A DNA stretch of 64,000 nt from Mercenaria mercenaria (taxonomy: Eukaryota): assembly GCF_021730395.1 (NCBI RefSeq), contig NC_069364.1, forward strand, positions 83,339,972 to 83,403,971, written 5' to 3'. Made by a program: the position numbers and the translations under genes. The notes under the pieces are model-generated. The model saw only the letters and a list, made by a program, of their open reading frames with translations, was not told where the DNA came from and did no database searches. Below are positions 19,263 to 62,983 of this stretch, in pieces (position 1 is the stretch's first letter; every line of letters begins with the position of its first letter).

Positions 19263-19265
19263 TTT

Positions 19266-19558
19266 TATTTGGCAGATACCTTTTTTGTTCACTTACAATA
19301 ATTTTTTTTGGAATTACCTCCCATTTATATTTCTATAAACAGCTTATTTTGAAACTTTTATACTTTTGGCCGTAGGGAAAAACTGTGACCCTTTTTCTGT
19401 GGTACAGCATGGATGGTACCCCCAATTTTTAGGTGTATTTTGACATACCTGTACCTGGTAAGGATTTTTTTGCGGACTTAAGATTTTTTTTGGAATTTCT
19501 TCCCTTTGTTGTTCCTGTCCTTTGGGCTTCAACAGTCTAGTTCTTTAAATTTTGCTCC
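19266..19558 (+). repeat. Copy of the 290-bp interspersed repeat.
   Basis: Aligns to 10965-11262 and to the reverse complement of 43858-44080. Confidence 0.5.
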
Positions 19559-20570
19559 CATCCTCTGATGTAACCCTTTGGGCGTATATTGCCCCACTTG
19601 GCGGAGCTCTTGTTTATAAAAGAAAATTTCATTAATGAATATCTGAATTATTTTATGCCTGCTAGAACAATCAAATTTTAGTCAATTCAGGGTTAGTATT
19701 TCAAAGGTCAAGGTCATGGTGAATGATCTTCGTCGTATGGCATTCACACATGGCAGAAATATTAGAAATGATCAGCAGACAACCTCACTGGTCTAGTTAC
19801 TGATATGAAATCATTCTGAAGGTATGGATTTATTATGGCTTTGACCTTTGACCAGAAACAAGTAGGGTCCATCTTCTCATCTAGGGCAATCTCCATTAAT
19901 TTTGAACTACATTCTATAAAGTTAATTGTGTTTGAGTGCTTTCTAGTAATCTCAGTTTTAAGGTGATTCTGAACTTGATCTTTGGCCTTATGGCCAAAAA
20001 ACCTAAATGGTTCATCAACAATCACCCTATTAAAGGTTTTATGATACAGTCATCTAACTGTAGTGCTATAACAAGACTTCTTATTCTTACTGTTGAACTT
20101 CAGAGACATAACAAAATACTAAGTAGCAACACTATGTATATATTATAACTGCCCCCCCCCACCCCCCCACACACAAAATTAACAGCAGGAAAGTAGAAAA
20201 TATTATCAAAGATAAGCAATTTTCAGTTGCAATTTTTGGTTACTGTAAAATCAGATATGTTCACAAATAATAAAATCTGGAGTGGTTTGCAAGGTAAAGT
20301 ATTCATGATGTGTGACAAATTTGTGACAATGTAATTTACATAAATAACAGCAATTTTGCAAGTATTTATTCCTGTGAATATCGAAAGTTGGCAAATAAAG
20401 TGAAAATAAATCCTTTGCGTGAATTTCTGATTCAACAGGTATGTATCAAAGCTTGACAGCACTTTTTGGTCCAGAAAGTGATGAAGTTGTATAGAAATGT
20501 ACTGACATCATGCATATGATAACATTTGGAAAGCATCACTGGCGTCTTGTAGGTTATACTCTTTCGTATA

Positions 20571-22262: not shown

Positions 22263-22504
22263 TATTTGTAATTTTGTATCATTTAATAAAGACAATGATC
22301 AAAAACAAGATGAAAAAACTTCCAATTCAGAATCAAACTGATTTATGACTTGACAGTTACATTAACATGAAATTTGCTGGAACAAAACATGACACTTCCA
22401 TCAAAATGATGCATTCAAGAATTAGTCGAGTTAGACAATTCTTATAACCTAGATATAACATTAAAACAGAGTATTTTAGTGTTTCTACATAACTGTATAT
22501 AGGA

Positions 22505-25500
22505 ACAAGAGCTGTCACAGGAGACAGCGCGCTCGACTATTTCGATGTTGGATAGTGAAACTGGGCACATCTGAGGAAACTAGAGCTGTCACTGGAGTGT
22601 TTAATGACTCCAATTGTGGATGAAGATATTACACAATAGCCTGAGTCTATGTCAAAAATATCAACTTAAAGTAATAAGAGAGGTAAAAATAAAATCTATC
22701 AAAACACTATATAAGTATATCCTAAGTAAAAATGGGCATAATTCATTAAATATTGGTGCCAGAGTTATGTACCTTGTGTCATATGGTGTGGGTGATGATG
22801 TTGAACAACTATTTTAAGTTTGAATCAAATCCATTCAGTAATAACAGAGACAGAGTGAAAGTGCATCAAAACTTTAACCTAAAATTCTAAGTAAAAAGGG
22901 GAATAATTCATGAAAAATTGTGCCAGAGTTATGCATCTTGTGTCATATGATGTGGGTGATGATGCTGAACAACTATTTTAAGTTTGAATCAAATCCATTC
23001 ACTAATAACGGAAGTAGAGTGAAAGTGCACCAAAACTTTAACCTGAAATTCTAAGTAAAAAGGGGGAATAATTCATAAAACAAGAGCTGTCCGTAAGACA
23101 GCCAAGCTCGACTATTCGAAATATTGTCACAGAAGCAGGAAATTATTACCCAAAATGTTAAATATCAAAAGAGTTTTAAGTTCGAAACGGGACATAATTT
23201 GACCAAAATGCATATCAGAGTTATGGGACTTGATGCTATCAACTAGTTTAATAACCCCGAAGAAACATGTTAAGTTTCAATTCCATATCTGCATTAGTTT
23301 TGGAGATAGTAACTTGCATGTAAAACTTTAAGCAGAATTTTCTAAGTCCAAAAGGGAGCATAATTTGCTCAAAATACATGTTAAGAGTTATGGAACTTGA
23401 CCCAGTGAGGTTGGTAACTGACCTAGAAAAAGAATAAATAAGTTTCAAAGCTATATGCCTTTTGGTAATAGCTGTATGTACTTGCACGCAAAACTTTAAC
23501 CAGGATTTTCTAAGTCCAAAAGGGTGCATAATTTGCCCAAAATACATGTCAGAGTTATGGGACTTGATTCTATCAACTAGTTTTATAACCCGAAGACACA
23601 TGTGAAGTTTCAATTTAATATCTGCATTAGTTTTGGAGATAGTAACTTGCATGTAAAACTTTAACCAGGATTTTCTAAGTCCAAAAGGGGGCATAATTTG
23701 CTCAAAATACATGTCAGAGTTATGGGACTTGGCCAGTGAGGTAGGTAATTGATCTAGAAAAAGAAAAAATAAGTTTCAAATCAATATGCCTTTTAGTAAT
23801 AGCTGTATGTACTTGCACGCAAAACTTTAACCAGAATTTTCTAAGTCCAAAAGGGGGCATAATTTGGCCAAAATACATGTCAGAGTTATGGGACTTGACC
23901 CAGTGAGGTAGGTAATTGATCTAGAAAAAGAAAAAATAAGTTTCAAATCTATATGCCTTTTAGTAATAGCTGTATGTACTTGCACGCAAAACTTTAACCA
24001 AAATTTTCTAAGTACAAAAGGGGGCATAATTTGGCCAAAATGAAGGTCAGAGTTATGGACTTGGTGCTATCAACTAGTTTTATAACCTCGAAAGACACAT
24101 GTGAAGTTTCAATTCAATATCTGCATTAGTTTTGGAGATAGTAACTTGCATGTAAAACTTTAACCAGAATTTTCTAAGTCCAAAAGGGGGCATAATTTGC
24201 TCAAAATACATGTTAGAGTTATGGAACTTGACCCAGTGAGGTTGGTAATTGACCTAGAAAAAGAATAAATAAGTTTCAAAGCTATATGCCTTTAAATGAT
24301 AGCTGTATGTACTTGCATGCAAAAACTTAACCAAGGTGTGACGCCGACGCTGACGCCGACGCCGACGCCAGGGTGAGTAGAATAGCTAGACTATTCTTCG
24401 AATAGTCGAGCTAAAAATGGTACCAGAGTTATGCACCTTGTGTCATATGATGTGGGTGATGATGTTGAACAATTGTTTAAGTTTGAATCAGATCCATTCA
24501 GTAATAACAGAGATAGAGTGAAAGTGCATAAAACTTTAACCTTAAATTCTAAGTAAAAAGGGGAATAATTCATGAAAAATTGTGCCAGAGTTATGCATCT
24601 TGAGTCATATGATGTGGGTGATGATGCTGAACAACTATTTTAAGTTTGAATCAAATCCATTCAGTAATAACGGAAGTAGAGTGAAAGTGCACCAAAACTT
24701 TAACCTGAAATTCTAAGTAAAAAGGGGGAATAATTCATGGAAAAAATGGTGCCAGAGTTATGCACCTTGTGTCATATGATGTAATAACGGAAGTAGAGTG
24801 AAAGTGCACCAAAACTTTAACCTGAAATTCTAAGTAAAAAGGGGGAATAATTCATGGAAAAAATGGTGCCAGAGTTATGCACCTTGTGTCATATGATGTG
24901 GGTGATGATGTTGAACAACTATTTTAAGTTTGAATCAAATCCATTCAGTTATAACAGAGATAGAGTGAAAGTGCATAAAACTTTAACCTTAAATTCTAAG
25001 TAAAAAGGGGAATAATTCATGAAAAATTGTGCCAGAGTTATGCATCTTGAGTCATATGATGTGGGTGATGATGCTGAACAACTATTTTAAGTTTGAATCA
25101 AATCCATTCAGTAATAACGGAAGTAGAGTGAAAGTGCACCAAAACTTTAACCTGAAATTCTAAGTAAAAAGGGGGAATAATTCATGGAAAAAATGGTGCC
25201 AGAGTTATGCACCTTGTGTCATATGAAGTAATAACGGAAGTAGAGTGAAAGTGCACCAAAACTTTAACCTGAAATTCTAAGTAAAAAGGGGGAATAATTC
25301 ATGGAAAAAATGGTGCCAGAGTTATGCACCTTGTGTCATATGATGTGGGTGATGATGTTGAACAACTATTTTAAGTTTGAATCAAATCCATTCAGTTATA
25401 ACAGAGATAGAGTGAAAGTGCATCAAAACTTTAACCTGAAAATCTAAGTGAAAAGGGGGGATAATTCATGAAATATTGGTGCCAGAATTATGGCCCTTAT

Positions 25501-25690
25501 GTCAGATGATGTGGATGATGATGAGGAATAAGTATTTCAAGTTTGAATCAAATCCATCAAGTAATTACAGAGATAAGTTGAAAAAAGAGAAAGTGCACCA
25601 AAACTTTAACCAAGGTGGGGACGCGGAAAGACGCCGACGCCGGGGCGAGTAGGATAGCTCTCCTTATACTTCGTATAGTGGAGCTAAAAA
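22505..25690 (+). mobile_element. Helentron-like element with a roughly 155-bp array, split by the nested element at 23079-24417.
   Basis: 5' end AACAAGAGCTGTCACAGGAGACAGCGCGCTCGACTATTTCGATG. The array units ..GGAATAATTCATGAAAAATTGTGCCAGAGTTATGCA.. resume immediately after 24417. 3' end GACGCCGACGCCGGGGCGAGTAGGATAGCTCTCCTTATACTTCGTATAGTGGAGCTAAAAATC. Confidence 0.6.
23079..24417 (+). mobile_element. Helentron-like element (alternating ~170-bp array) nested inside 22505-25690.
   Basis: 5' end AACAAGAGCTGTCCGTAAGACAGCCAAGCTCGACTATTCGAAATATTGTCACAGAAGCAGG. 3' end (GACGCC)n CAGGGTGAGTAGAATAGCTAGACTATTCTTCGAATAGTCGAGCTAAAAA. The insertion sits inside an A-run of the host monomer (AATTCATAAA^...^TGGTACCAGAG). 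Confidence 0.65.
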
Positions 25691-33545: not shown

Positions 33546-34303
33546 CATATAATAAAAGGGTCATTACAGCAGTAGCTAGATCTGGGATGCTGTATTTGGC
33601 TAAAGTGGATTTTGGCAGATCGGATCTCACGAGGCGCGCAATCGCAGAGTATGATCCATTCTTGCAAAATCCACTAGATAATATAATATCCCTATAATAT
33701 TACACTCTAGTTTTGTTAAGTATGTCAGATCCAATTATCTATAATTTCATACTCTTCCTCATTCAGATGTGATACCGAACAAGTAAAATTCTGGAATGTA
33801 ATCTATTATGTCAATCAAATAATGAGGATGTGTGAAATCATTTATCCTCTACCTCTAATTCATGTGGATAAGTTGTCAGTTTGTCAGTTACTTGTGGAAA
33901 ATGGGCAAGTAGTCTGGCACAGAATTGAGAAACTCTGGTTAGGTTATCCACCTGTCATTACATAACTGAATAACTCTGAAGTACATGTACTATTGAAAAA
34001 CTGCTAACACGTACCCCAACAAAAAAGAAAAAAGAAGAGTAAATCAAGAGTTGTCCATAAAACAGCACGCTCCACTATTTGGTGATTTGACAGTAAAATG
34101 AATTTATGTCTCATAAGAGACTTCTACTTTAAAGGGAAAATACACCAAGACATAAAAAGACCCTAATAATCAGAGGGATTAAAGGTCAAGTATGGAAGGG
34201 GTACTGACATTTTTTATTTCTTCTTTTTCTTCCAGAGAAGGTCAGGAGTCTAAAAGACAGTATTGTTGACCTAACTAGGGTGATGAAATTAAATTATATC
34301 AGA

Positions 34304-36005
34304 AACAAGAGATCACAGAGTGATCTTGGCGCCCACCATTTAGCCATTTTTGAATGTTCCAAATTTCAAGACTAGCTCAAGGTCAAAATCAGGGTCAAAT
34401 TTCATTTCGGTACAGAACACTGTGCATGTGGTCCATGCATGTGTTTCAAATTTTAAAGCTGTAGCTTGAGAAATGTTAAAGTAGGTCACTAGATCAATTT
34501 CAAGGTCAAAGTTCATTTTGGTACACAAAACTATGCATGTGCTTCAAATTTGGAGGCTGTAGCTTGAGAAATGTGAAATTAGGTACTAGGTAAAAATCAA
34601 TGTCAAATTTCAATTCAGAACACAAAAATATGCATGTGGTCCAAATTTGAGGCCTGTAGCTTCAGAAATGTGAAAGTAGGTCACTAGGTCAATCTCAAGA
34701 TCAAAGTTCATTTCGGTACACAAAACTATGCACGCGGTCCAAATTTGAAGGCTGTAGCTTGAAAAATGTGAAAGTAGGTCACTAGGTCAAAATCAAGGTC
34801 AAATTTCATTTCAGAACACAAAACTACGCATGTGGTCCAAATTTGAAGCCTGTACCTTCAAAAATGTGAAAGTAGGTCACTAGGTCAATGTCAAGGTCAA
34901 AGTTTGTTTCGGGACACAAAATTATGCATGCAGTCCAAATTTGATTTGAAGGCTGTAGCTACAGAAATGTGGAAGTAGGTCACTAGGCCAAGATCAAGGT
35001 CAACTCATATCAAGGTTTATCTTGCTTCTCAAAACTATACATGTGGTCCAAATTTGAATGTTGTAGGTTATCGATAAAAAGAAGTTTTTCCCTATATAAG
35101 TCTATATGAACCATGTGACCCCCGGGGCGGGGCCATATTTGACCCTAGGGGAATAATTTTAATAAACTTGGTAGAGAACCACTTGATGATGCTACATTAC
35201 AAATATCAAAGCCCTAGGCTTTGTGGTTTGAACAAGAAGATTTTCAAAGTTTTTCCCTATATAAGTCTATGTAAACCATGTGACACCAGGGCGGGGCCAT
35301 ATTTGACCCTAGGGGGATAATTTTAATAATCTTAGTGATGGACCACTAGATGATGTCACATACAAAATATCAAAGCCCTAGGCCCTGTGGTTTTGGACAA
35401 GAGGTTTTTCAAAGTTTTTCCCTATATAAGTCTATATAAACAATGTGACCCCTGGGGCGGGGCCATATTTGACCCTAGGGGGATAATTTGAACAAACTCG
35501 GTAGAAAACCACTAGATGATGCTACATTACAAATATCAAAGCCCTAGGCTTTGTAGTTTGGACAAGAAGATTTTCAAAGTTTTTCCCTATATAAGTCTAT
35601 GTAAACCGTGTGACCCTCAGGGTGGTGCCATATTTGACCCCAGGGAAATAATTTGAACTATCTAGGTAGAGGACCATTAGATGATGCTTCATACCAAATA
35701 TCAAAGCCCTAGGCCCTGTGGTTTTCAACAAAAAGATTTTCAAAGTTTTTCCCTATATAAATCTGTGTAAATTATAAAAATAAATAAAGGGCCATAACTC
35801 ACTCAAAAATTGTTGAACCAGTCTGATTTTCAGGGGGACACAACTAGGGTACAAATACATCATTCTGACAAAGTTTGGTCAAAATCCCCCCCAGTAGTTT
35901 CTGAGGAGATGCGATAACAAGAAATTGTTAACGGACGGAAGGACGACGGACCACGGACGCAGAGTGATTTGAAAAGCCCACCATCTGATGATGGTGGGCT
36001 AAAAA
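34304..36005 (+). mobile_element. Helentron-like element carrying two different tandem arrays (about 120 bp x6 at 34370-35050, and about 180 bp x4 at 35060-35770).
   Basis: 5' end AACAAGAGATCACAGAGTGATCTTGGCGCCCACCAT. 3' end GGACGGAAGGACGACGGACCACGGACGC ... AGCCCACCATCTGATGATGGTGGGCTAAAAACAG. The second array matches the window-start satellite (1-345) in reverse orientation. Confidence 0.6.
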
Positions 36006-36099: not shown

Positions 36100-36757
36100 T
36101 AGCAGATGATGATGATAAAGATACATTTTAAGTTTCAAATCATTATCTTATATTGTACTAAAGTTATATCCAGAAAGCGAAGGTCGCCAAAAAACTTTAT
36201 GAAAAGGGCATAATTCTGTCAAAAATACAATTAGAGTTATGGGGATTGTAACCACACATGCAGATGATGATTATAAAGAAATGTTTTTAATTTCAAGTCA
36301 TTATCTTTTAAAGTACCAAAGAGATGTCTATAAACGAAGCTTTCGAAAAAATGTAACATGAAAATAATTCCAAGTATAACAAATTTGTGACCTTGACCTT
36401 GGGTATAATGGGCCCAGCCCCTGAAAATACTTTGTTTGTATGCTGGACAGTGTTTATGTGAACCTACAGTAAGATATAAGCAATAGTAACAAAGATATGA
36501 CAGAAAAACAAAGGTTGCCGAAAAACTTTAACCTTAAAATAACACCTTGGTGACCTTGACCTTGGGTATAATGGACCCAGGCCCTGCACATACTTCGTTT
36601 GCATGCTGAACAATGTTAATGTGAAGTAACAGTAAGATATAAGCAATAGTAACAAAGAAAAACAAAGGTTGCCAAAAAACTTTAACCAAGAAGGCTCATG
36701 CCGCTGCCGGAGCAAGTAGAATAGCACCCTTATTCTCCAAAATAGGGGAGCTAAAAA
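36100..36757 (+). mobile_element. 5'-truncated Helentron-like element (about 250-bp array x2).
   Basis: 3' end GCCGCTGCCGGAGCAAGTAGAATAGCACCCTTATTCTCCAAAATAGGGGAGCTAAAAATC. The units contain GTGACCTTGACCTTGGGTATAATGG. Confidence 0.5.
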
Positions 36758-38653: not shown

Positions 38654-39691
38654 AATTCTTTATGAAACTGCAGCTTCAGTCGTTAAGAAGAACAAAAAGT
38701 ACACACAAAAAATTGCACAGATTTATCTTTAGATTGTTAAAACCAAAAACTATAAATAGAGAAATGTTCAATACATTTTTGTTTTCCATAATGTTCCTGA
38801 TCCACATAAACTTTCATAAGATTTTGCCTCCTTTTCCTTATCTGTTTTGATTAAGCATTTATAATGTCTAACTTTACAACATTAAAGAATTACAGCAAAT
38901 TATAATCAAAACTGCTATTAACCCTTAGCCTGCTGGTGGCGAGTTATTCTGCCTTTGCGACCCAAAAGCCTGGATCTGATATTTTTTAATCCATGTAGCA
39001 GTACACTTGGCACAAAATTTTCCCAATCTTAAGAATTGCAACAATAATTATTGTAATAATAAAATTTCATGTTCAGTACTACTGTGAAATCATTAATATT
39101 CATGGTTGAGACAATCCATGAAATTTAATCCCAACGAATTAGTAAAATTCCCATTCATTTTATGTTCAAAAGTTGAAATCCACGAATTCATATTCCCATG
39201 AAAATGCCGTTTTGACCAAAACCACGAAATTTCATGCCCACGAAATTAAATGATTTTACAGTATATTTCATCTTAAAGGGGCCCATCTTCAGATTTATAT
39301 TGCTCATTTTAATTTTTTTAATTCAAAAAGTATTTTATAATTTCAATTTTTAGTGAATTTTTGAACAAAAAATCAAAACAAGGAGAGTATGATTCTTCTT
39401 TAAGAACACTTATATGAAATTGTTTATGGCTTAATTAAGAAAAGCTCTCTACAGTTTTTTAGTAAGATAATATACATATAAATTCACAATAGTCTAAACA
39501 ACTTTAACCAAAAACACATATGATGCAATATTCTTTAATATCTCTAATTTCTACATTAAGTCGCTATTTACCAAATTATATGAATTGAATTACAAAAACT
39601 GCTCCCTTCTTCCAAAGCATATCAAAATTATTTCTTTCATCAACAGCCTATAATATATTTGATCATATGAAACCCGGGTATTAAGAGTTTA

Positions 39692-40089
39692 TACAAAAAT
39701 AGGCTGTTTAACATTTGGGCTTCTGAATTGAGTTGGTCCCTGCTTTTGTGGGCTCATCTCTTCAGTATGTAGATTCAAACTTCTTGCAACAAATTCGTAC
39801 CAGCTTGATCCCAGCTCAAGACTCGTACAAACCAGAGGATGCCGCTTATCAACCCAAACACAGTACTCAAATGCCATCTCTATGGCAACCTTTACTTTGT
39901 CCTTTTCTGTCCCTGCTGGTTCAAACTTTGTTACTTCAACTTTATCTGCAACCAACTTTACAAGCTCCTCCTCTTTGTCAGACAGTTTGCAGTTACGTGG
40001 AAAAGCCTGCGGTGCCAACAGCTTGAAAATGTACAAGAGGACGATGCTTGTAGAAACTATACGGATGATTTCTTCATAGCATTTCAAGC
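39692..40089 (-). CDS. Terminal coding exon of an unidentified - strand gene (132 codons plus stop TAA at 39689-39691).
   Basis: Acceptor (minus strand) ttctttcag|GC at 40090-40091. It translates (G)LKCYEEIIRIVSTSIVLLYIFKLLAPQAFPRNCKLSDKEEELVKLVADKVEVTKFEPAGTEKDKVKVAIEMAFEYCVWVDKRHPLVCTSLELGSSWYEFVARSLNLHTEEMSPQKQGPTQFRSPNVKQPIFV*. The phase-2 start is completed exactly by the phase-1 end of exon 41343..41244. Confidence 0.5.
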
Positions 40090-41243
40090 CTGAAAGAATC
40101 AAGACAACAAATTAAAAGCAAAATCAATATCTTGATGCTATTCCTTTACTTACTTTGTATTAGTTTTAACTATAAAAGTTATTCAACACTTTTTAGTGAA
40201 ACAGAGAATGGAAATTTGATGGTATGAAATATCTCATACTCATTAATCTAAAAATAGGTTACATATTTTATTGAATGAAAGGGGAATCAACAGTTGCTTG
40301 TTAAATATATTATGTCTCTCTAACATTCAGTTTTATGCTGGCTGTTAGTGTTACCTTGACCTTTTACCAGCTGACATACATTTATTGAACAGAAACCATT
40401 TTCAGTATAAAGTAGGCAGTTACCTTGACCATCAGTCCTTCTGGCCTCCAATATAACAAGGAAAGCCTACTAACCTATGGAGGTAAGCTGATGGTAGGCC
40501 AAAGCCTTTCCTAGTTATTTATCAGAAATCCTTCTCAGTTTCAAGGATATTGCACCTTTGACCTCAAATATGATAGGCAGACATCCTAGACGTAGTGTTG
40601 ACCAAAGCCTTTTCCAGTCTTTTATCGAAAATCATTTCAGTCTCAAGGTTACTGAAACCTTGACCTTTGACCTACTGCCTTCCAAAACACTAGATGTCAT
40701 CTACTGACCAGTACTCTATGCAATTTCACAGCTGTAGGCCTAAGAGTTCTCCAGCTACTGACTGGGAACCGAGGTACCAACCAACATATATATATATATC
40801 AAGTTTCATGAAGATCCATCAATGGGTTACTTTGTTAAGTGGGAATCACAAAATTAAAGGGCAATAACTCTGAAATTACTAAAGTGATTTTAATAAAAGT
40901 TGTGCATGCACCACTGTCCTATAATGTTTACATTTTCATGAGGGATTCATCAATAGGTTACTTACAACCACAGACAAAAAGCTGTATTTTTTACCAAATC
41001 AAGGAGAAATAGATTCTAATTTGCTTTTACTGGGTCAAGGGGGATAATACTAAATGCAAGCAAAAAATTACATAAAGTTGAGTTACTCTAGCTAAAATAC
41101 TTTCTAAATTGTAAGCATTTTTAATTTAATACGGCATGTACTCACTCACATGCACGGATGGACAGATGAATGAACAGCTGTACAGAAAATGCTATATACC
41201 TCAACCTTCAGTAGTATATAATATGATAGTTTCCTGTACTCAC

Positions 41244-41469: not shown

Positions 41470-42409
41470 CCGGGTCATCTAATGACCACAGGATATTATT
41501 CCTTGATGTTTTACTGTTAAAGGTTCAAGCATTTTCTGTACCAAGGCAACAAGGACTTTCTAAGTCTAAAATTGGGCATAATTTGGCTAAAATGCATGTC
41601 AGAGTTATTAGACTTGATGCTATCACCTAGTTCTATAACCCTGAAGACACAATCATGTGACATTTCAAATCAATATATCTGCATTAGTTTTGGAGGTAGT
41701 AACTTGCATCAAAAACTTCGACCAGGATTTTCTAAGTTCGAAAGAGCCAAAATACATGTCAGAGTTATGTGTCTTGACCCAGTGAGGCTGGTAATTGACC
41801 TAGAAAAGGAAAAAACAAGAGCTGTCTCCGTAGGATGACACATGCCCCCGATGGCACTTTGAATGAATAGTTATGGCCGATGTTAGAGTTTAGGACCTTT
41901 GACCTACGGAGCTGGGTCTTGCGCGCGACACATCGTCTTACTGTGTCACACATTCATGCATAGTTATTTTAAAATCCATGCATGAATGACAAAGATATGG
42001 ACCGGACATGCCCATCAATGCACTATCATGAAAAATGATCTTTAATGTCTAAGTGTGACCTTGACCTTTGAGCTACGGACCTGGGTCTTGCGCACTGCAC
42101 GTCGTCTTACTGTGGTACACATTCATGCCAAGTTATTTGAAAATCCATCCATCGATGACAAAGATATGGACCGGACACGAAAATTGCGGACAGACCAACA
42201 GACTGACAGACCGACAGACGGTTCAAAAACTATATGCCTCCCTTCGGTGGCATAAAAAGAAGTTTCAAAGCAATATGCCTTTAAATGATAGCTATACATA
42301 CTAGCATGCATAACTTAACCAAGATGTGACACGGATGCCAAAGCCAGGGTGAGTAAAATAGCTCACACTATTCAAAGTCAGACAATTTTTCGAATAGTCA
42401 AGCTAAAAA
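41470..42409 (+). mobile_element. Helentron-like element of the 23079-24417 family. It is 5'-truncated and split by the nested insertion at 41814-42259.
   Basis: Array units at 41530-41813. The 3' end resumes at 42260 with TTTCAAAGCAATATGCCTTTAAATGATAGC...CAGGGTGAGTAAAATAGCTCACACTATTCAAAG...TTCGAATAGTCAAGCTAAAAATAG. Confidence 0.55.
41814..42259 (+). mobile_element. Helentron-like element nested in 41470-42409. Same family as 4884-5661, in opposite orientation.
   Basis: 5' end AACAAGAGCTGTCTCCGTAGGATGACACATGCCCCCGATGGCAC. 3' end GACAGACCGACAGACGG...CTATATGCCTCCCTTCGGTGGCATAAAAAG. It is inserted in an A-run (GAAAAAGGAAAAA^). Confidence 0.65.
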
Positions 42410-42883
42410 TAGTGGTCATCAACTAACCATAAGACTAATTTCACCTAGTCACACAATATTATGGTCAATCTAATCTGATCAGACAATCATTCTTACAAGT
42501 TTGATATCATTAAACCCAAACTGTCTTCCACTTATTGAAAATAAATTTTTTTAAGTCATGAGGTCACAGTAACCTTTAACCTACTGAATCCCAAAATTTC
42601 ATCAACTATCCCACAGTTGGCAACAGTGTTCTTTAGTTAGTAACTAGAAAGTTCTTAAGTTAGTAACTAGAAACCATTTCCAGTCTTGAGATCAATGTCA
42701 CCTTAACCCATGTCCTAATGACACCAAAATAAACAAACTTGGTAATCTACTGACCACAGGATATCATCCTTCTAATGTTTAACAAAAGCAGGTCTAAGTA
42801 CTCTTCATAACTGACAAACAAGAGGGCCATAATGGCCCTATATCGCTCACCTGTCATCATTGCACTTAACGAGAAGAAGGTCA

Positions 42884-43837
42884 AACAAGAGCACCGCCTT
42901 GCGGGTGCTGACGCTCATCTGATTTTTCGTATAATAGAAATATTGTCCTACCAATGATTTTCTAAGTCTAAAAAGGGTCATCATTCTTGCAAAAAGCAGG
43001 ATAGAGTTATGTTTCTTGATGTACAGCGTCCGCTTATGATGGTGAAAAACTGTTGCAAGTTTTAAAGCAATAGCTTTGATAGTTTACGAGAAAAGCTGAC
43101 TTAAACATAATACTCAACCAAGAAAACACGGTCAGCTTATGATGGTGAACAAGTGTTGCAAGTTTCAAAGCAATAGCTTTGATAGTTTAAGAGAAAAAGT
43201 TGACCTAAACAAAAAACTTAACCAAGAAATCTGATATTTTCTAAGTCCAAAAGGGGCCATAAATCTTGAAAAAACCAGGATGGAGTTATGTTTCTTGCTG
43301 TTCAGGGTCAGCTTATGATGGTGACGAGTGTTGCAAGTTTTAAAGCAATAGCTTTGATAGTTTAGGAGAAAAGCTGACCTAAACATAAAACTTAACCAAG
43401 AAAACTGATTTTCTAAGTCCAAAGGGGGCAATAATTCTTGCAAAAAGCAGGATGGAGTTATGTTTCTTGATATACAGGGTCAGCTTATGATGGTGAACAA
43501 GTGTTGCAAGTTTCAAAGCAATAGCTTTGATAGTTTAGGAGAAAAGTTGACCTAAACATAAAACTTAACCAAGAAATCTGATATTTTCTAAGTACAAAAG
43601 GGGCCATAAATCTTGCAAAAAGCAGGATGGAGTTATGTTTCTTGCTGTACAGGGTCAGCTTATGATGGTGAACAAGTGTTCCAAGTTTCAAAGCAATAGC
43701 TTTGATAGTTTAGGAGAAAAGCTGACCTAAACATAAAACTTAACCAGGCAATGCCGACGCAGACGCCGACGCTGACACCGATCAAGTGATGACAATAACT
43801 CATCATTTTTTTTCCAAAAAATCAGATGAGCTAAAAA
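42884..43837 (+). mobile_element. Helentron-like element (about 175-bp array x5). It is preceded at 42816-42883 by a solo 5' terminus of another element.
   Basis: 5' end AACAAGAGCACCGCCTTGCGGGTGCTGACGCTCATCTG. 3' end (GCCGACGC)n ...CAAGTGATGACAATAACTCATCATTTTTTTTCCAAAAAATCAGATGAGCTAAAAATC. At 42816 lies ACAAGAGGGCCATAATGGCCCTATATCGCTCACCTG. Confidence 0.6.
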
Positions 43838-43857
43838 TCATAATCAAGATCAATCAA

Positions 43858-44080
43858 AAGAATCATGAGAAAATATAGTTGAAATTTTCCTAAAGGTACA
43901 GATATGTCAAAATACACCTATACATTGGAGGTATCATCCATGTTGTACCACAGGAAAGTGGTCTCGGTTTTTCCCTACAGCCAATAATAAAAAAGTTACT
44001 AAATAAGCTATTTATAGTAACATAAAAGGGAAGTAATTAAAAAAAAATTATTGTAAGGGAACAAAAGAAGGATCTGCCAA
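43858..44080 (-). repeat. Copy of the 290-bp interspersed repeat, in reverse orientation.
   Basis: Its reverse complement aligns to 10965-11190. Confidence 0.5.
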
Positions 44081-44082
44081 AT

Positions 44083-44475
44083 AACAAGAGCTGTCCGTAA
44101 GACAGCCAAGCTCGACCATTCGAAATATTGTCACAGAAGCAGGAAAATATTACCCAAAATGTTAAATATCAAAAGAGTTTTAAGTTCGAAAGGGGACATA
44201 ATTTGACCAAAATGCATATCAGAGTTATGGGACTTGATGCTATCAACTAGTTTTATAATCCTGAAGAAACATGTTACGGTAAGTTTCAATTCCATATCTG
44301 CATTAGTTTTGGAGATAGTAACTAGCATGTAAAACTTTAACCAGAATTTTTTAAGTCCAAACGGGGGCATAATTTGCCAAAAATACATGTTACAGTTATG
44401 GAACTTGACCCAGTGAGGTTGGTAATTGACGTAGAAAAAGAATAAATAAGTTTCAAAGCTATATGCCTTTAAATT
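44083..44475 (+). mobile_element. 3'-truncated Helentron-like element (23079-24417 family).
   Basis: 5' end AACAAGAGCTGTCCGTAAGACAGCCAAGCTCGACCATTCGAAATATTGTCACAGAAGCAGGAAAATATTACC. There is no microsatellite or hairpin end. Confidence 0.5.
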
Positions 44476-44779
44476 AGTCATAGCCTCTATGCCGTCTAAA
44501 CAGCTGATCGCATGTATTGAAATGCTGCCGTTTGACGTCATAGGCCACTCCTGTCAAAAAATGTCAATATAAGAAGGAGAATTTAGAATGTGCAATGCAA
44601 CTCCATGCAAGGATTTCGGAAAATTTTGTATAGAAATAAATAAACATAAATTGTCCTTTTTTATATTGAATACCATTTGAATCAGTGTAGATGCTTCTAA
44701 TTTGCAAGAAAAACGTTTTCTTCACCGCTGTAATTCTGTCATGTTTTCAAACAGCGGCCGCCATTTTAGGAATTTCTCT

Positions 44780-50574: not shown

Positions 50575-51225
50575 TTATACATGGGTTTCTACGGTAATTG
50601 ATCTAGAAAATGAAAAAATAAGTTTCAAATCTATATGCCTTTAAGTAATACCTGTATGTAATTGCACGTAAAACTTTAACCAGGATTTTCTAAGTCCAAA
50701 GGGGGCAAAATTTGGCTAAAATGTAGGTCAGAGTTATGGGACTTGATGCTATCAACTAGTTTTATAACCCCGGAGAAACATGTTAAGTTTCTATTCAATA
50801 TCTGCATTAGTTTTGGAGATAGTAACTTGCATGTAAAACTTTAACCAGAATTTTCTAAGTCTAAAACGGGGCATAATTTGCCCAAAATGAAGGTCAGAGT
50901 TATGGGACTTGGTGCTCAACTAGTTTTATAACCCCGAAGACACATGTGAAGTTTCAATTCAATATCTGCATTAGTTTTGGAGATAGTAACTTGCATGTAA
51001 AACTTTAACCAGAATTTTCTATGTCCAAAAGGGAGCATAATTTGCTCAAAATACATGTCAGAGTTATGGAACTTGACCCAGAAAAAGAATAAATAAGTTT
51101 CAAAGCTATATGCCTTTAATTGACAGCTGTACTTGCATGCAAAAACTTAACCAAGGTGTGACGCCGACGCCGATGCCAGGGTGAGTAGAATAGCTAGACT
51201 ATTCTTTGAATAGTCGCGCTAAAAA
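50575..51225 (+). mobile_element. 5'-truncated Helentron-like element (23079-24417 family). First member of a head-to-tail run.
   Basis: 3' end GTGTGACGCCGACGCCGATGCCAGGGTGAGTAGAATAGCTAGACTATTCTTTGAATAGTCGCGCTAAAAA abuts the next element's AACAAGAGC. Confidence 0.55.
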
Positions 51226-52117
51226 CAAGAGCACTGCAATGCAATGCAAATGCAGAGCAATATACACACAAAACAAAGTATTATGACCTTTGACCCCTAA
51301 GTGTGACCTTGACCTTGAAGTGAGCCATCCAAAACATGCGCTCTGCACATCGTTTCAATGAGGTGAACATTTGTGTCAGGTTTCTTTGAAATCCTTCAAG
51401 GGGTTCAAGAGTTACAGAGCAGAAGGGAAATTGCTAACCAACAGACAGAAAGACAGACAGACACCAAGGCGATAACATAATATGTCGAGATCTTATGGTG
51501 ATACAAGTTGTGTGCAAGTTTGGTTAAAATCAAATCATAAATGAAGCTGCTATTGTGCAGACAAAGTCAAAATAGCTAATTCTGGCCCTTTCAGGAGTCA
51601 TAACTCTGGAACCCATTATGGGATCTGGCCAGTTCAAGAATGGAACCAAGATCTTATGGGGACACAAGTTTTTGTGCAAGTTTGATTAAATTCATATCAT
51701 AAATGAAGCTGCTATTGTGCAGACAAGGTCAAAATAGCTAATTCTGGCCTTATCAGGGGCCATAACTCTGGAACCCATAGTGGAATCTGGCCAGTTCAAG
51801 AAAGGAACCAAGATCTTATGGTGATACAAGTTGTGTGCAAGTTTGGTAAAAATCAAATCATAAATAAAGCTGCCATTGTGCAGACAAGGTCAAAATAGCT
51901 AATTTTGGCCCTTTCAGGGGTCATAACTCTTGAACCGATAATGGGATCTGGCCAGTTCAAGAAAAGAACCATAATCTTATGGTGATACAAGTTGTGTGCA
52001 AGTTTGGTTAAAATAAAATCATAATTGAAACCATTATCATGCAGACAAGAAACTGTGGACGGACGACGGACGATCACAAAAGCTCACCCTGTCACTACGT
52101 GACAGGTGAGCTAAAAA
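51226..52117 (+). mobile_element. Composite Helentron-like element. It has a 5' end, a 160-bp module with its own microsatellite and degenerate hairpin (18205-type), then about 4 copies of the 9907-11318-family array and a second microsatellite, hairpin and CTAAAAA end.
   Basis: The element reads ACAAGAGCACTGCAATGCAATGC..., then (CAGA)n CACCAAGGCGATAACATAATATGTCGAG, then the array (reverse complement of the 9997-10600 units), then GGACGGACGACGGACGATCACAAAAGCTCACCCTGTCACTACGTGACAGGTGAGCTAAAAA. Confidence 0.55.
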
Positions 52118-52960
52118 CAAGAGCACTGCCTTGCAGGTGCTGATGCTCATCTAATTTTGTTGTATAACAGAAATATTGTCCTACCCATGATTTTCTAAGT
52201 CTAACAAGACTCGACTTTTCTCAGTGCTTGACTCTGAATTAGAGCTTTGCCAGTAAAAAAAAATCCAGGTTAAAAAGGGACATAATTCTGTCAAAATTCA
52301 AATCTGAGTTATGGGAACTGTGTCTCCTAGTGTAGACTTTGATAGAAAATAGCTATTTTGAGTTTCAAGTCAAAAGCTTTAATAGTAACAGAGATATTTA
52401 ACTTTATAAAAAAAAAAAATAAAAAAATTCTAAGTTAAAAAGGGGCATAATTCTGTCAAAATTCAAATCAGAGTCATGGGGATTGTTTCTCCTGGTGTAG
52501 ACTTTGATGGTAAATAAGTATTTTAAGTTTCAAGTCAAAAGCTTTGATAGTAACAGAGATATTTGACTTTATCAAAAATTTTAACAAAAAATGCTATGTT
52601 GAAAAGGGGCATAATTCTGTCAAAATTCAATCAGAGTTGTGGGGATTGTTTCTCCTGGTGTAGATTTTGATGGTAAATAAGTATTTTAAGTTTCAAGTCA
52701 ATAGCTTTGACAGTAACAGAGATATTTGACTTTATCAAAAACTTTAACCAAAAATTCTAAGTTAAAAAGGGGCATAATTCTGTCAAAATGCAAATCAGAG
52801 TTATGGGGATTGTTTCTCCTGGTGTAGACTTTGATAGTAAACATCTATTTTAAGTTTCAAGTCAATAGCTTTGATAGTAACAGAGATATTTGACTTTATC
52901 AAAAACTTTAACCAACGCCGACGCCGGGGCGAGTGCAATAGCTCTACATTTTCTTCAAAA
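52118..52960 (+). mobile_element. Helentron-like element (about 175-bp array x4) whose 3' hairpin is fused directly to the next element's array.
   Basis: 5' end ACAAGAGCACTGCCTTGCAGGTGCTGATGCTCATCTAATTTTG. 3' end ACGCCGACGCCGGGGCGAGTGCAATAGCTC, followed without CTAAAAA by the array of the 42884-family. Confidence 0.5.
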
Positions 52961-53491
52961 AGGGCCATCATTCTTGCAAAAAGCAGAATAGAGCTATGTT
53001 TCTTGATGTACAGCATCCGCTTATGATGGTGAAAAACTGTTGCAAGTTTTAAAGCAATAGCTTTGATAGTTTATGAGAAAAGCTGACCTAAACATAAAAC
53101 TTATTTTCTAAGTCCAAAAGGGGCAATAATTCTTGCAAAAAGCAAAATACAGGGTCAGCTATTGATGGTGAACAAGTGTTGCAAGTTTCAAAGCAATAGC
53201 TTTGATAGTTTAGGAGAAAAGTTGACCTAGACATAAAACTTAACCAAGAAATCTGATATTTTCTAAGTACAAAAGGGGCCATAAATCTTGCAAAAAGCAG
53301 GATGGAGTTATGTTTCTTGCTGTACAGGGTCAGCTATTGATGGTGAACAAGTGTTGCAAGTTTCAAAGCAATAGCTTTGATAGTTTAGGAGAAAAGCTGA
53401 CCTAAACATAAAACTTAACCAGGCAACGCCGAAGCCAACCAAGTGATGACAATAACTCATTTTTTTTCCAAAAAATCAGATGAGCTAAAAA
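52960..53491 (+). mobile_element. Helentron-like element (42884-43837 family), 5'-truncated or recombinant.
   Basis: 3' end GCAACGCCGAAGCCAACCAAGTGATGACAATAACTCATTTTTTTTCCAAAAAATCAGATGAGCTAAAAAAG. Confidence 0.5.
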
Positions 53492-54789
53492 AGATATATA
53501 CCATATTTTGCAAGGCTATCACTTGTCCAAGCTTTGGGAACACCAGTCCAGATTTGCCTAGTTTCACTATAACTGGTATTTGTACTCCAATACCATACTC
53601 ATGTAACTTTGTTTCCCCTTTCAGACTTGCTGCAATAGAAAAACAAGCAATTTCAATTAATTTTGTATTCTCCAACAAATACGAGTAAGTTTTGTCCCTG
53701 CAGTGTTATAAAACTACAAATTGTTTTTAGCAAAAGCACATGTCTCCCTATACCACTTTTTTTAACCTGAAATGTTAATTGATAAGCAATATCCAGCCAT
53801 ATCAAAGATATTTTGCTATATAACTTCATTTTTTGCAAAATAAGAAGAAAATGTACAAAACTATGTAAGAAATTGTATGTAGTCCATATCAACAACAAAA
53901 ATTAAACAAAAACTGTTTGTAAACATGTATTCCCCAAATAGTGACCCCAGGAGTATTATAATTTACTAAGGTATTTAGTACACTGTCACACTGGCTTTGA
54001 TGCTCAAAGAATGTTCTTACGGAAAGACATACTGATAAGCCACATACAGGGAGACATAATTGTAGGACAGACTTAAGGTAAGACATGTTGATACTTTACC
54101 TTTAGCCTGCTAGCGGCAAGTGATTCTGCCTTTGAGATCAGTGCTAGCTGATCCATGCAGGCTGATCATGGTCTATATATACTGTTCACTATTCAGTCAG
54201 TAAACTTTAAGTGAACACCCTTCAAATAATAAATAGTATTGCCCAAAGTGAATGACAGACCAGTCTATTTTTGAAATTTTGCAGGGTAAAGGAATTTTAT
54301 AGAATGAACAAGACTTAAAACAGGAATAACTGATAGAGGCATTTGACTACTGACCTTATACTGTAACCTTGACCTTAAAATGACCCAGCAGCAATATAGG
54401 TTCTGCTAATTTATAATGAGGTGAACATTTTAACAGTAGGCCTTGAATACTGAAAGTCAACAATTACATTTCCAGCAGCACTATATACTTTTAGGCTAGG
54501 TTAAACCAGGTGTACTCTCATACTTGACTTTGAGTGCCAGGTGTATTCAATAAAGGAAACTTACACAAAATATGGGTATAAACAGCAGATATTTAAGAAT
54601 AAGGTTAGTATGTGTACATATAGCATTGTTACTCATATAAATATGTTAAACTCTCACAGCTTAAAATACAGAGACTGTTTGCCTTTTGTATATCAAAAAT
54701 GTTTTTTTACTCTTTTATGTTTTATTTCTTATACCTGGGTGAAATAAAAGTTTTGTTCTATTCTATTCTGTAATAGCTTTTTTTCAGTC

Positions 54790-60905: not shown

Positions 60906-62808
60906 AACAAGAGGACCATGATGGTCCTGAATCGCTCACCTATCCCCACATGACCCAGTGTTGAACTGAGTATGACATCGTTATTTCTATTATTTGACAA
61001 AGTGACCTAGTTTTTCAGCACATGTGACATAGATATCATCAAGATAACAAATTCTGACCAATTTTCATGAAGATCCATTGAAAAATATGGCCTCTAGAGA
61101 GGTCACAAGGTTTTTCTATTATTTGACCTAATGACCTAGTTTTTGAAGGCACGTGACCCACTTTTAAACTTGACCTAGATATCATCAAGGTGAACATTCT
61201 CACCAATTTTCATGAAGATCTCGTGAAAAATATGGCCTCTAGAGAGGTCACAAGGTTTTTCTATTTTTCGACCTACTGACCTAGTTTTTGACGGCAAATG
61301 ACCCAGTTACGAACCTGACCTAGATATCATCAAGCTGAACAGTCTCACCAATTTTCATGAAGATCCATAGAGAAATATGGCCTCTAGAGAGGTCACAAGG
61401 TTTTTCTATTTTTAGACCTACTGACCTAGTTTTTGACCCCACGTGACCCAGTTTCAAACCTGACCTAGATATCATCAAGATGAACCTTCTGACCAATATT
61501 CATGAAGATCTCATGAAAAATATGGCCTCTAGACAGGTAACAAGGTTTTTCTATTTTTAGATCTACTGACCTAGTTTTTAACCCCACGTGACCCAGTTTC
61601 GAACTTGATCTAGATATCATCAAGGTTAACATTCTGACCAATTTTCATGAAGATCCATTGAAAAATATGGCCTCTAGAGAGGTAACAAGGTTTTTCTATT
61701 TTTAGACCTACTGACCTAGTTTTTGACCGCACATGACCCAGTTTCAAACTTGACCTAGATATCATCAAGATGAACATTCTGACCAATTTTCATGAAGATC
61801 CATTGAGAAATATGGCCTCTAGAGAGGTCACAAGGTTTTTCTATTTTTAGACCTACTGACCTAGTTTTTGATCCCACATGACCCAGTATCGAACTTGACC
61901 TAGATATCATCAAGGTGAACATTCTGACCAATATTCATGAAGATCTCATGAAAAATATGGCCTCTAGAGAGGTCACAAGGTTTTTCTATTTTTAGATCTA
62001 CTGACCTAGTTTTTACCCCCACGTGACCCAGTTTCGAACTTGACCTAGATATCATCAAGCTGAACATTCTGACCAATTTTCATGAAGATCCATTGAGAAA
62101 TATGGCCTCTAGAGAGGTCACAAGGTTTTTCTATTTTTAGACCTAATGACCTAGTTTTTGACCCCACGTGACCCAGTTTCAAACTTGACCTAGATATCAT
62201 CAAGGTGAACATTCTGACCAATATTCATGAAGATCTCATGAAAAATATGGCCTCTAGAGAGGTCACAAGGTTTTTCTATTTTTAGACCTACTGACCTAGT
62301 TTTTGACCCCACATGACCCAGTTTCGAACTTGAGCTAGATATCATCAAGGTGAACACTCTGACCAATATTCATGAAGATCTCATGAAAAATATGGCCTCT
62401 AGAGAGGTCACAAGGTTTTTCTATTTTTAGACCTACTGACCTAGTTTTTGACCCCACATGACCCAGTTTCGAACTTGACCTAGATATCATCAAGGTGAAC
62501 ATTCTGACCAATTTTCATGAAGATCTTGTGAAATATATGGCCTCTTGAGAGGTCACAAGGTTTTTCTATTTTTAGACCTACTGACCTAGTTTTTGATGGC
62601 ACATGACCCAGTTTCGAACTTGACCTAGATATCATCAAGGTGAACATTCTGACCAATTTCAAAGATCCCATGAAAAATGTGACCTCTAGAGTGGTCACAA
62701 GCAAAAGTTTACGGACGCACGCACGCACGCACGCACGGACGACGGACGACGGACGCCGCGCGATCACAAAAGCTCACCTTGTCACTTTGTGACAGGTGAG
62801 CTAAAAAA
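60906..62808 (+). mobile_element. Helentron-like element with about 14 copies of a 120-bp array.
   Basis: 5' end AACAAGAGGACCATGATGGTCCTGAATCGCTCACCTATCC. 3' end (ACGC)5 GGACGACGGACGACGGACGCCGCGCGATCACAAAAGCTCACCTTGTCACTTTGTGACAGGTGAGCTAAAAAACAGG. Confidence 0.7.
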
Positions 62809-62983
62809 CAGGTCTGGAATTTAAATAGAACATAGAGTGAAATCTCCCTAAATGAAGATGCTATCTTTTCTCTTTACTTAATGCGCTTTTAGGAGCTTGA
62901 TGTACTGTTCACATTGATATGTGATTTCATCACAAAACTGCCAGTTTCAATTCTGTTGTTTATTATTTCTGTGTTCTTACAAA

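Follow-up and report, generated by a model that had tools for sequence, protein, structure and literature searches.

The 2.9-kb stretch at positions 50575–53491 of the 64-kb Mercenaria mercenaria sequence analysed here (the window) raises the question of how short repeat elements of different families came to lie head to tail, in part joined terminus to terminus and in part fused through what had looked like a chimeric junction. An earlier note on this DNA had described a run of four elements arising by rolling-circle read-through. The stretch is probably a nest of small non-coding rolling-circle transposons of the non-autonomous Helentron type (HINEs, like pearl, DTC84 and Cg_HINE), which inserted one after another, each independently, and were later eroded by small deletions; that sequence and that independence are what we infer from this one locus. 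Such pile-ups are ordinary for an element class already described, no new kind of mobile unit is involved, and the locus as it stands, an ordinary transposon nest, is mainly a correction of the first reading.

HINEs are Helentron-associated interspersed elements, including DINE-1 of Drosophila; like Helentrons, their published target is a T-rich or TT site, and they insert without target-site duplication (Thomas, Vadnagara & Pritham 2014, PMC4067079). They share with the present elements the lack of coding capacity, a subterminal repeat that forms a hairpin with its internal complement, a microsatellite, optional central tandem repeats, a second subterminal repeat, a short palindrome and strings of T (A on the other strand) at both boundaries. 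About 20 such copies make up about one third of the window sequence. Some 13 hairpin-side ends consist of microsatellite, hairpin and GCTAAAAA, and some 17 CAAGAG-side ends of AACAAGAG and a short palindrome with stems of 6–8 bp (e.g., GCTGTC..GACAGC or GGGCCAT..ATGGCCC). Of 12 further ends, 10 fold into a stable hairpin although the sequences are unrelated between families, with fold z-scores from -2.4 to -7.6 in most ends and T-less, GC-rich microsatellites immediately inside. Every intact element carries subterminal inverted repeats of 10–17 nt, placed 2–8 nt inside the A5 end and 21–28 nt inside the CAAGAG end, whereas non-cognate end pairs show only 6–9-nt inverted repeats at arbitrary offsets. 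In all copies one end has A5 (T5 on the opposite strand) and the other two or more A, and the plan of pearl, DTC84 and Cg_HINE is present throughout: L module, core repeats of ~150–180 bp, microsatellite, R module and AA ends. The stretch contains only short ORFs that run through the repeats, no Rep/helicase-like ORF was found among the window ORFs of at least 130 aa and the window holds no autonomous element. The first proposal, that rolling-circle elements lie here head to tail, holds, and feature by feature they are built like non-autonomous Helentrons as defined in print (PMC4067079; PMC7492417; PMC3879986). The orientation first used is that of pearl and DTC84; the Helentron convention, followed for the strands given below, places the elements on the minus strand, so the end earlier called 3′ is the Helentron 5′ end. 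Rfam and tRNA scans of the window returned only a tRNA-like SINE head at 18.8 kb, and protein searches gave a single metagenomic match each.

Five element-derived pieces of five families (A, F′, B, C and D), in a single orientation and all on the minus strand, make up the stretch, connected by two flush terminus-to-terminus joints, one nested element and one internal fusion. The head-to-tail order stands, and four clean elements do not: the supposed second unit is itself a fusion at 51486/51488, and the supposed third and fourth are a single D-type element with a C-type element nested inside. The A-type copy (50594–51225) had been taken to start at 50575; family homology begins at ~50590–50594, this first element lacks a CAAGAG/palindrome end, and a search upstream for ACAAGAG found none. 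Read on the plus strand it follows the pearl/DTC84 order L–array–microsatellite–R, with a 164-bp array (50658–51076 plus partial monomers), a GACGCC-type microsatellite (~51161–51178) and, at 51191–51225, a terminal hairpin formed by the subterminal inverted repeat and its internal complement and closed by A5 (-7.7 kcal/mol, z = -3.4); positions 51077–51225 are 87% identical to 24253–24417. The F′-type fragment (51226–51486) comprises CAAGAG and its palindrome (51226–51258, z = -2.0), one monomer and a CAGA-type microsatellite (~51441–51463), and 51258–51486 corresponds to 18580–18222 on the minus strand; its end module stops after ..ATAATATGTC, and ~19 nt are absent (CCTTCGGGCCTATAAAAAA in the full copy). 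The B-type element (51488–52117; full copy 11318–9907) starts within its 161-bp array (51488–52029) and lacks the ~620-bp CAAGAG-side module, continuing with an ACGG-type microsatellite (~52046–52069), a terminal hairpin (52081–52112, z = -7.2) and A5, with 89% identity between 52035–52117 and 9996–9907.

The D-type element opens with its CAAGAG-side module (52118–52204), made of CAAGAG, the palindrome AGCACTGC-CTT-GCAGGTGCT and the start of the first monomer, 15 nt that close with ..GTCTAA; 52118–52208 is 90% identical to 42886–42975, and the palindrome stem carries a compensatory T>C / A>G change in the 52118 copy relative to the 42886 copy. The rest of the element (52965–53492) holds a 175-bp array, a degenerate GCCGA microsatellite (53417–53443) and a terminal hairpin that ends in GCT-A6, with 88% identity between 53426–53491 and 43769–43837. 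Its subterminal repeat GCTCATCTAATTTT at 52145–52158 forms a 14-nt inverted repeat with 53472–53485, at the offsets of the full copy, so that the outer ends 52118 and 53491 are a cognate pair. Between the two parts, in the first D-type monomer, lies the C-type element (52205–52964) with a degenerate terminus, a 164-bp array (52254–52912), a GCCGAC microsatellite (52913–52926) and part of a hairpin. The terminus reads AACAAGA-CTCGACT, its palindrome deleted, and aligns to the A/E-type subterminal repeat CTCGACTATTC; the C-type end module is identical at 35/42 positions to 25631–25672 and at 37/50 to 36700–36747.

The two seamless junctions are confirmed. Joint 1 (51218–51231) connects the A-type end to the F′-type end and joint 2 (52110–52123) the B-type end to the D-type end, each as GCT-AAAAA-CAAGAG with an exact match to GCTAAAAACAAGAG followed by CAAGAGCACTG, and at both a microsatellite and a terminal hairpin stand upstream of the five A. 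Finding CAAGAG after at least 2 of 13 such hairpin-side ends has a chance probability of ~5e-6. To call the A residues shared, as had been done, is fair: solo ends carry A on either side (exactly five in 11 of 13 hairpin-side solo ends, at least two, range 2–7, upstream of 15 of 15 solo CAAGAG ends), and both joints have exactly five. The third case that had been listed with them, at 42878–42891, reads GGTCAAACAAGAGC with no CTAAAAA, and no two termini meet there: a complete D-type element (42886–43837), whose CAAGAG end this is, lies nested in the end module of another element, of which 67 bp (42816–42882, 91% identical to 11318–11252) precede the insertion. In the 64-kb window, no second copy of any heterologous joint or composite was found.

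How elements may come to abut in this manner is suggested by their A-runs. The hairpin-side run is constant at five and is therefore part of the element, whereas the run upstream of CAAGAG varies from 2 to 7 and is therefore host sequence. Elements would integrate at the downstream edge of an A-run, on the strand that has the hairpin end on the right, which would be the T-rich/TT target published for Helentrons, and a resident copy would then offer a target at its own boundary, in its terminal A5 as well as in the host A-run originally used. Under such a rule the A5 end of a resident is a strand-specific target, an incoming copy lands in the same orientation, and the two would meet seamlessly, head to tail, across exactly five A. 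It could likewise account for same-orientation nesting into A-runs inside array monomers: nested copies do lie in A-runs of host monomers without duplication, and at 41815, where A6 is followed by CAAGAG and the host resumes at 42259, a reconstructable host monomer places the whole host A-run to the left of the insert. Nested same-orientation architecture recurs at three other places in the window, an A-type element (23080–24417) lies within an E-type array, and all seven nested or abutting pairs share orientation (p = 0.008); the sense strand of the elements contains 511 AAAA and 312 TTTT. A preference for T after the A5 run was considered and rejected, the ~70% observed being no commoner than the ~50% background after A-runs, so that the definition of the target stays loose.

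The junction at 52930–52960 had been read as a recombinant or an aberrant termination product, in which GGGGCGAGTGCAATAGCTC runs into the array of another family without CTAAAAA. Both observations hold, and the simplest account of this "chimeric junction" is that the nested C-type insertion ends here on its right side. Both alignments cover 52957–52964, the 8-nt AAAAAGGG common to the second arm of the C-type hairpin and the resuming D-type monomer (..GTCTAAAAAGGG..), and a finer placement of the breakpoint is impossible. The D-type sequence is collinear with the full copy on either side of the insert, 52118–52208 with 42886–42975 and 52957–53101, the position-specific first monomer, with 42970–43114 (95% identity). 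The C-type hairpin remnant (52940–52964) keeps the first arm, the loop and 8 nt of the second arm and lacks GAGCT-A5; folded as it stands, this end forms no hairpin (z = -0.4). A slippage deletion of ~13–16 nt between two AAAAAGGG repeats, one in the second hairpin arm and the other made of A5 + GGG of the host monomer, would produce this edge. That two truncated elements had fused at 52957 where a flush joint was deleted was considered and dropped for nesting, since D-type collinearity extends to either side and a terminus of its own begins the C-type piece. Nesting is favoured and not proven because the D-type monomer offers a second alignment for 11 nt upstream of the breakpoint (ATTTTCTTC), in which case there would have been a short duplication.

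A true chimera, absent from the earlier note, lies instead at 51484–51491 (..GTC-G-AGATC..), where F′ and B meet without terminus motifs. The F′ homology (83/107 identity) ends at 51486 and the B monomer homology (70/73) begins at 51488, and no microhomology was found at 51487. Between the CAAGAG-side module at 51227 and the end at 52117 there is no cognate inverted repeat; within the stretch the subterminal repeats of an intact element are present in the D-type pair (52145–58 / 53472–85) and missing from the F′/B unit. The fusion would most simply represent a deletion of at least 640 bp across a former third flush joint, an account against which the missing microhomology counts. The exact breakpoint sequences in the stretch are TGCAATAGCTCTACATTTTCTTCAAAAAGGGCCATCATT and ATAATATGTCGAGATCTTATGG. 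A premature-termination origin for the copies without a CAAGAG end was also considered and rejected, their truncated edges having no preceding A-runs.

An origin of the array by read-through of one element is not supported, since adjoining units come from different families, each with another array, end module and subterminal repeats. Complete Helitrons set in tandem by rolling-circle amplification (Pritham & Feschotte 2007; Xiong, Dooner & Du 2016; relayed in PMC7492417) likewise have head-to-tail order and some copies truncated at one end, but in that account they repeat one element. Here adjacent units are not the same element and every neighbour belongs to another family, unrelated or only distantly related in its array, end module and subterminal repeats, so the array cannot be the product of one read-through or multi-round replication event. 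A weaker form, in which the transposase starts at the 5′ end of one element, ignores its terminator and stops at that of a neighbour, so that composites move ready-made and flush joints are inherited from a donor locus or a circle junction, is a possibility to which we give a minor share. This end-bypass model reportedly goes back to Feschotte & Wessler and to Tempel et al. Helraiser forms precise head-to-tail end joints in circles and passes weak terminators (PMC4778049), and compound Helitrons that combine one copy's 5′ end with another's 3′ end are documented (PMC4224331; PMC3288121). The C-type passenger lacks both terminal structures while the D-type host has intact ends, as expected if they travelled together, and the number of flush joints lies somewhat above what A-run targeting by itself would give: two among ~17 CAAGAG ends give p = 0.006 against a null matched on run length, p = 4e-4 for runs of at least two A and p = 0.09 for runs of at least five. 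Given this excess under most nulls, element ends may attract insertions through more than their A-run, or composites may have co-moved. Co-mobilisation nevertheless requires prior adjacency and leaves the origin of flush heterologous joints unaccounted for; the window holds no second copy of a joint or composite, the ends of the F′/B unit are non-cognate, and no further copies appeared in the external collections searched (metagenome, viral contigs and public assemblies). There, a joint 15-mer gave 89 chance matches in viral contigs with no extended similarity, and a D-type terminus 24-mer gave none in metagenome or viral contigs, with two chance matches inside GC-rich bacterial genes. A conserved hairpin-end 23-mer recovered five genuine related loci in metagenomes (L092–L096), none of which has the joints of this stretch; L093 reads GAGCT-AA-CAAGAG, with only two A, which counts against the A-run account, and a small palindrome with no clear element downstream. 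Junction-spanning and array ORFs were all absent from public assemblies by exact look-up.

Alternatively, the fusions at 51487 and 52957 could stem from exchange between HINE families by ectopic recombination or template switching, with microsatellites, hairpins and conserved monomer boxes among the possible sites, and we consider this rather improbable. Recombination of modules does occur in the class: DTC84 shows independent variation of its end modules, spacers and arrays (PMC3879986), B-type and G/H-type elements of the window have common end modules with different arrays, and the 52957 breakpoint falls within an 8-nt identity. Against this, 51487 has no microhomology, and the C-type terminus motif stands exactly where D-type homology stops, with the D-type sequence resuming collinearly afterwards, which nesting predicts and a single crossover does not. 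A mis-join or collapse during assembly seems very unlikely, even in a window that is about one third HINE and has a nearby array of 117-bp repeats that are 100% identical, the kind of sequence that assemblers mishandle. The joints link different families through unique sequence, the neighbours are only 87–95% identical to their paralogues, so that collapse of identical repeats would not create such joints, and the three further instances of nested same-orientation architecture speak against it; the real risk is limited to monomer copy numbers inside arrays.

The elements have close counterparts in bivalves. Cg_HINE of Crassostrea gigas (Vojvoda Zeljko et al. 2020, PMC7492417), pearl of C. virginica and DTC84 of Donax trunculus (PMC3879986) share the same modular plan: an end module, a satellite-like array of ~160 bp, an ACGG/GTCY-type microsatellite, a hairpin end module and 'AA' at both ends. 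They belong to other species and families, and similarity to oyster is at motif level only, one window array sharing a ~50-nt motif with the Cg170/CL1 monomer. Relative to HINEs in general, this lineage has its own arrays and, in the Helentron convention, its own termini (..CTCTTGTT and TTTTTAGCTC..), and with no autonomous partner in the window the link to a Rep/helicase/endonuclease is putative. Cg_HINE_10_13 and Cg_HINE_11_12 have two arrays per element, like 52118–53491 and 34303–36005 here; the oyster arrays are directly consecutive, whereas here parts of its own termini still accompany the inner array, which points to nesting as its source. Flush heterologous head-to-tail joints and nesting are unreported in PMC7492417 and PMC3879986. 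Multi-termini Helitrons of maize derive from nested ones (PMC3288121), and nested or compound Helitrons of maize and bats (PMC4224331) resemble the present case in same-orientation nesting or adjacency, in internal termini retained or degraded and in potential composite transposition from one outer 5′ end to another outer 3′ end. They are canonical Helitrons with an A|T target, TC..CTRR ends and gene fragments, whereas here the elements are Helentron-type with satellite-like arrays and the composite is known from one locus. With its intact cognate ends, the D-type element and its degraded C-type passenger could in principle move as a two-array composite.

As a worked example, the locus shows how satellite-like arrays carried on Helentron relics come to lie side by side, inside one another or fused, which could plausibly lead to the oyster two-array elements and to more complex repeats. 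More speculatively, and with considerable doubt on our part, element termini may be preferred, strand-locked integration sites where the hairpin of a resident beside its A5/T5 recruits the transposase, so that self-targeting enlarges the arrays and gives rise to two-array composites and, in time, to higher-order satellites. If element ends proved genome-wide to be struck more than other A-runs, this would indicate self-targeting by a eukaryotic rolling-circle transposase. In bacterial HUH transposons, strand-specific single-strand integration is coupled to the direction of replication or transcription; we know of no demonstration of such coupling for eukaryotic HUH-type elements. Strand segregation of elements may, on the same doubtful footing, reflect a coupling of this kind. 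About 16 element blocks in the window are fully segregated by strand, minus before ~20 kb and plus after ~22 kb.

The run at 50575-53491, described in the earlier note as four rolling-circle elements lying head to tail, is a nest of elements of a known class and nothing out of the ordinary. Its elements match the published architecture of the non-autonomous Helentron-associated interspersed elements (HINEs), whose inverted repeats, hairpins and palindromes were checked directly; the rolling-circle attribution was right. The window is AT-rich (GC 33-39%), contains no long ORF over its 64 kb and is crowded with tandem arrays of 145-175 bp period. Near the run, each array leads into a short, GC-rich microsatellite, then a hairpin and finally the motif GAGCTAAAAA (the A5 end); at variable spacing before the array come (A)ACAAGAG and a short palindrome (the CAAGAG end). 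All intact elements of the window carry an inverted repeat of 10-17 nt, set back from the A5 end by 2-8 nt and from the CAAGAG end by 21-28 nt; combinations of ends from different elements gave inverted-repeat matches at background level only. Most copies have a stable A5-side hairpin despite wholly different sequences between families. The CAAGAG-side palindromes also fold, and one of them differs between two copies by a compensatory change (AGCACTGC/GCAGGTGCT vs. AGCACCGC/GCGGGTGCT). Additionally, a ~50-nt motif in one array matches the oyster Cg170/CL1 monomer, which along with published work points to a likely bivalve origin. HINEs comprise a subterminal inverted repeat a few nucleotides from one terminus, paired with an internal complement, followed by a microsatellite, optional central repeats, a second subterminal repeat and a short palindrome, with T-strings at both boundaries, and they target T-rich/TT sites without target-site duplication (PMC4067079; oyster Cg_HINE, PMC7492417). 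The pearl and DTC84 elements of bivalves are an earlier description of the same elements in the opposite reading direction, with 'AA' at the ends (PMC3879986). By Helentron convention the run elements lie on the minus strand, hence the 3' end of the earlier note is the Helentron 5' end.

The reported run is largely real and was parsed wrongly in three places. It begins with a copy of the A-type family (50594-51225) that retains array, microsatellite, hairpin and A5 and lacks the CAAGAG-side module. An F'-type piece follows (51226-51486; CAAGAG, palindrome, one monomer and microsatellite), the end module of which is ~19 nt shorter than that of the full copy at 18.2-18.6 kb. The adjoining B-type copy (51488-52117) starts in mid-array, lacks a ~620-bp module of the full B-type copy (11318-9907) and ends in an excellent hairpin and A5. 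The F'- and B-type sequences meet at ..GTC-G-AGATC.. and, since neither terminus motifs nor cognate (same-element) subterminal repeats are found there, this fusion is a true chimera, which had been overlooked. The remainder is one D-type element in two parts (52118-52204 and 52965-53492), both collinear with a full copy (52118-52208 vs. 42886-42975, 90%; 52957-53101 vs. 42970-43114, 95%), with the cognate D-type inverted repeat at its outer ends (52118-53492) at offsets identical to those of the full copy. A C-type element (52205-52964) lies within the first D-type monomer, at GTCTAA|. It starts with AACAAGA-CTCGACT, an A/E-type terminus from which the palindrome between two CAAG repeats is gone, and ends with AGCTCTACATTTT-CTTC-AAAAAGGG, which covers the first arm of the hairpin, its loop and 8 nt of the second (35/42 and 37/50 identities to two full end modules).

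This right end directly adjoins the D-type monomer, and the earlier note had proposed a recombinant or aberrantly terminated junction at 52930-52960. The C-type sequence does pass straight into the D-type monomer, but with D-type sequence collinear on both sides the junction is better explained as the blurred edge of a nested insertion. Given a D-type host site of GTCTAAAAAGGG, ..AAAAAGGG-GAGCT-AAAAA would lie beside ..(A)AAGGG.. if the C-type insertion were intact, and a slippage deletion of ~13-16 nt between those direct repeats would give the sequence observed. We infer this deletion step rather than read it directly, as the 11 nt before the junction (ATTTTCTTC) can alternatively be aligned to the D-type monomer.

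The two seamless joints, where the A5 end of one element meets the CAAGAG end of the next, hold up: GCTAAAAACAAGAG is exact at 51218-31 and 52110-23, directly followed by CAAGAGCACTG in both (p ~5e-6 vs. chance). The third case at 42878-91 does not; it reads GGTCAAACAAGAGC, without CTAAAAA, and is where a complete D-type element (42886-43837) has its CAAGAG end. This element interrupts another element's end module after its first 67 bp; the module picks up again at 43893 and is interrupted a second time, by an A-type element, at 44084.

The hairpin-side A-run is exactly five in 11 of 13 solo ends, and the one before CAAGAG ranges from 2 to 7. In cases that allow the host to be reconstructed, its entire A-run lies to the left of CAAGAG; at 41815, for instance, an F-type element sits in a monomer of the A-type (A6|CAAGAG). 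Read most simply, the five A are part of the element itself, and a new copy integrates at the edge where a host A-run stops on its downstream side, which is the published T-rich/TT preference read from the opposite strand. The boundary of a resident element would coincide exactly with such an edge and, the target being strand-specific, a newcomer would share the resident's orientation, producing a seamless joint with five A, as seen twice (51218-31, 52110-23). The same rule accounts for same-orientation nesting, found in 7/7 nested or abutting pairs (p = 0.008); on the element sense strand AAAA occurs 511 times vs. 312 for TTTT. The excess of hits on element ends over other A-runs varies with the null (p = 0.006 for run-length-matched, 4e-4 with all runs of 2 A or more, 0.09 with runs of 5 A or more), and resident ends may exert a modest additional pull, or co-mobilisation may be involved.

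The earlier note derived the head-to-tail order from read-through past a terminus. For Helraiser, experiments showed circles with precisely joined head-to-tail ends as well as bypass of the terminator (PMC4778049), and compound or multi-termini Helitrons from adjacent or nested copies are on record (PMC4224331, PMC3288121). However, read-through multimers would repeat one element, while each neighbour in the run is from a different family and no joint has a second copy in the 64-kb window; this origin is not supported, and read-through could at most have moved a pre-existing composite. The best candidate for such a composite is the pair of D-type host and C-type passenger: the D-type outer ends are cognate and intact, and the C-type passenger lacks both of its own terminal structures. 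The pair resembles the likewise two-array oyster Cg_HINE_11_12. A scan of public collections returned five related loci only, none informative on composite mobility. Assembly artefact is unlikely at the joints since these connect diverged, non-identical families, although it may affect monomer copy numbers.

Other nests and composites occur in the window. At 22504-25690 an E-type array holds, within one of its A-runs and in the same orientation, a complete A-type element (23080-24417; 17-nt cognate subterminal repeat). Two pairs of 117-bp repeats in this array are 100% identical, and it has a higher-order period of 447 bp (95%), features that suggest either recent local amplification or a problem of assembly. 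At 41548-44484, with all pieces in one orientation, an A-type copy without CAAGAG end bears an F-type element (41815-42258), followed by a B-like end module (42816-42882, 43893-44084) bearing the complete D-type and then a truncated A-type (44084-44484). The element at 34303-36005 is single, with cognate ends (CGCCCACCAT) and two arrays unrelated to each other, a 98-bp one and a 165-bp one, the latter being the one with the Cg170 motif. About 100 bp past the A5 end of this element is a further copy in the same orientation without CAAGAG end (36110-36757), and a TCAAGAG-type end fragment lies at 34044. A full F'-type copy (18205-19615, minus strand) holds a ~1-kb interruption. Part of it, at 19264-19525, is related to the B-type end module; it also includes, at 18770-18841 on the plus strand, a tRNA-Ser-like sequence (39.5 bits to Rfam tRNA) that is probably a tRNA-derived SINE head.

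Two near-identical stretches of ~130 nt at 48691 and 49668, 977 bp apart and both containing ..CAAAATCAGCTAAAAAATGAGACC.., indicate a ~1-kb direct duplication or tandem repeat with no relation to HINE ends. An exon-like ORF at 39689-40102 (minus strand) has no domain found and shows 62% identity over 111 aa to one unnamed JGI metagenome-contig protein. Among the related metagenome loci, L093 (WLWI01036513.1, ~575-590, minus strand) carries a B/H-type hairpin end with two A only and then CAAGAG and a small palindrome (GAGCT-AA-CAAGAGACGTGGAAATTCCA), with no array visible downstream of this CAAGAG; it may be another seamless joint with a shorter A-run, or chance. AAAAAACAGGT follows both the H-type end at 62800-62815 and the related metagenome copy L096 (contig Ga0182091_1563060), 88-94% identical; either the element of this family reaches past the A-run or both copies lie in the same repeated target. 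Lastly, HINE-homologous blocks are on the minus strand in 8/8 cases in 1-19.5 kb and on the plus strand in 8/8 in 22.5-64 kb, as are the arrays at 37.4-38.6 kb and 54.8-55.4 kb; the switch falls at ~19.6-22.5 kb, and the sign of the AT skew flips to match. If the 16 blocks are independent, seeing no more than one strand switch has p ~5e-4; gene/intron orientation selection, a uni-strand small-RNA cluster or strand-specific integration are possible causes.
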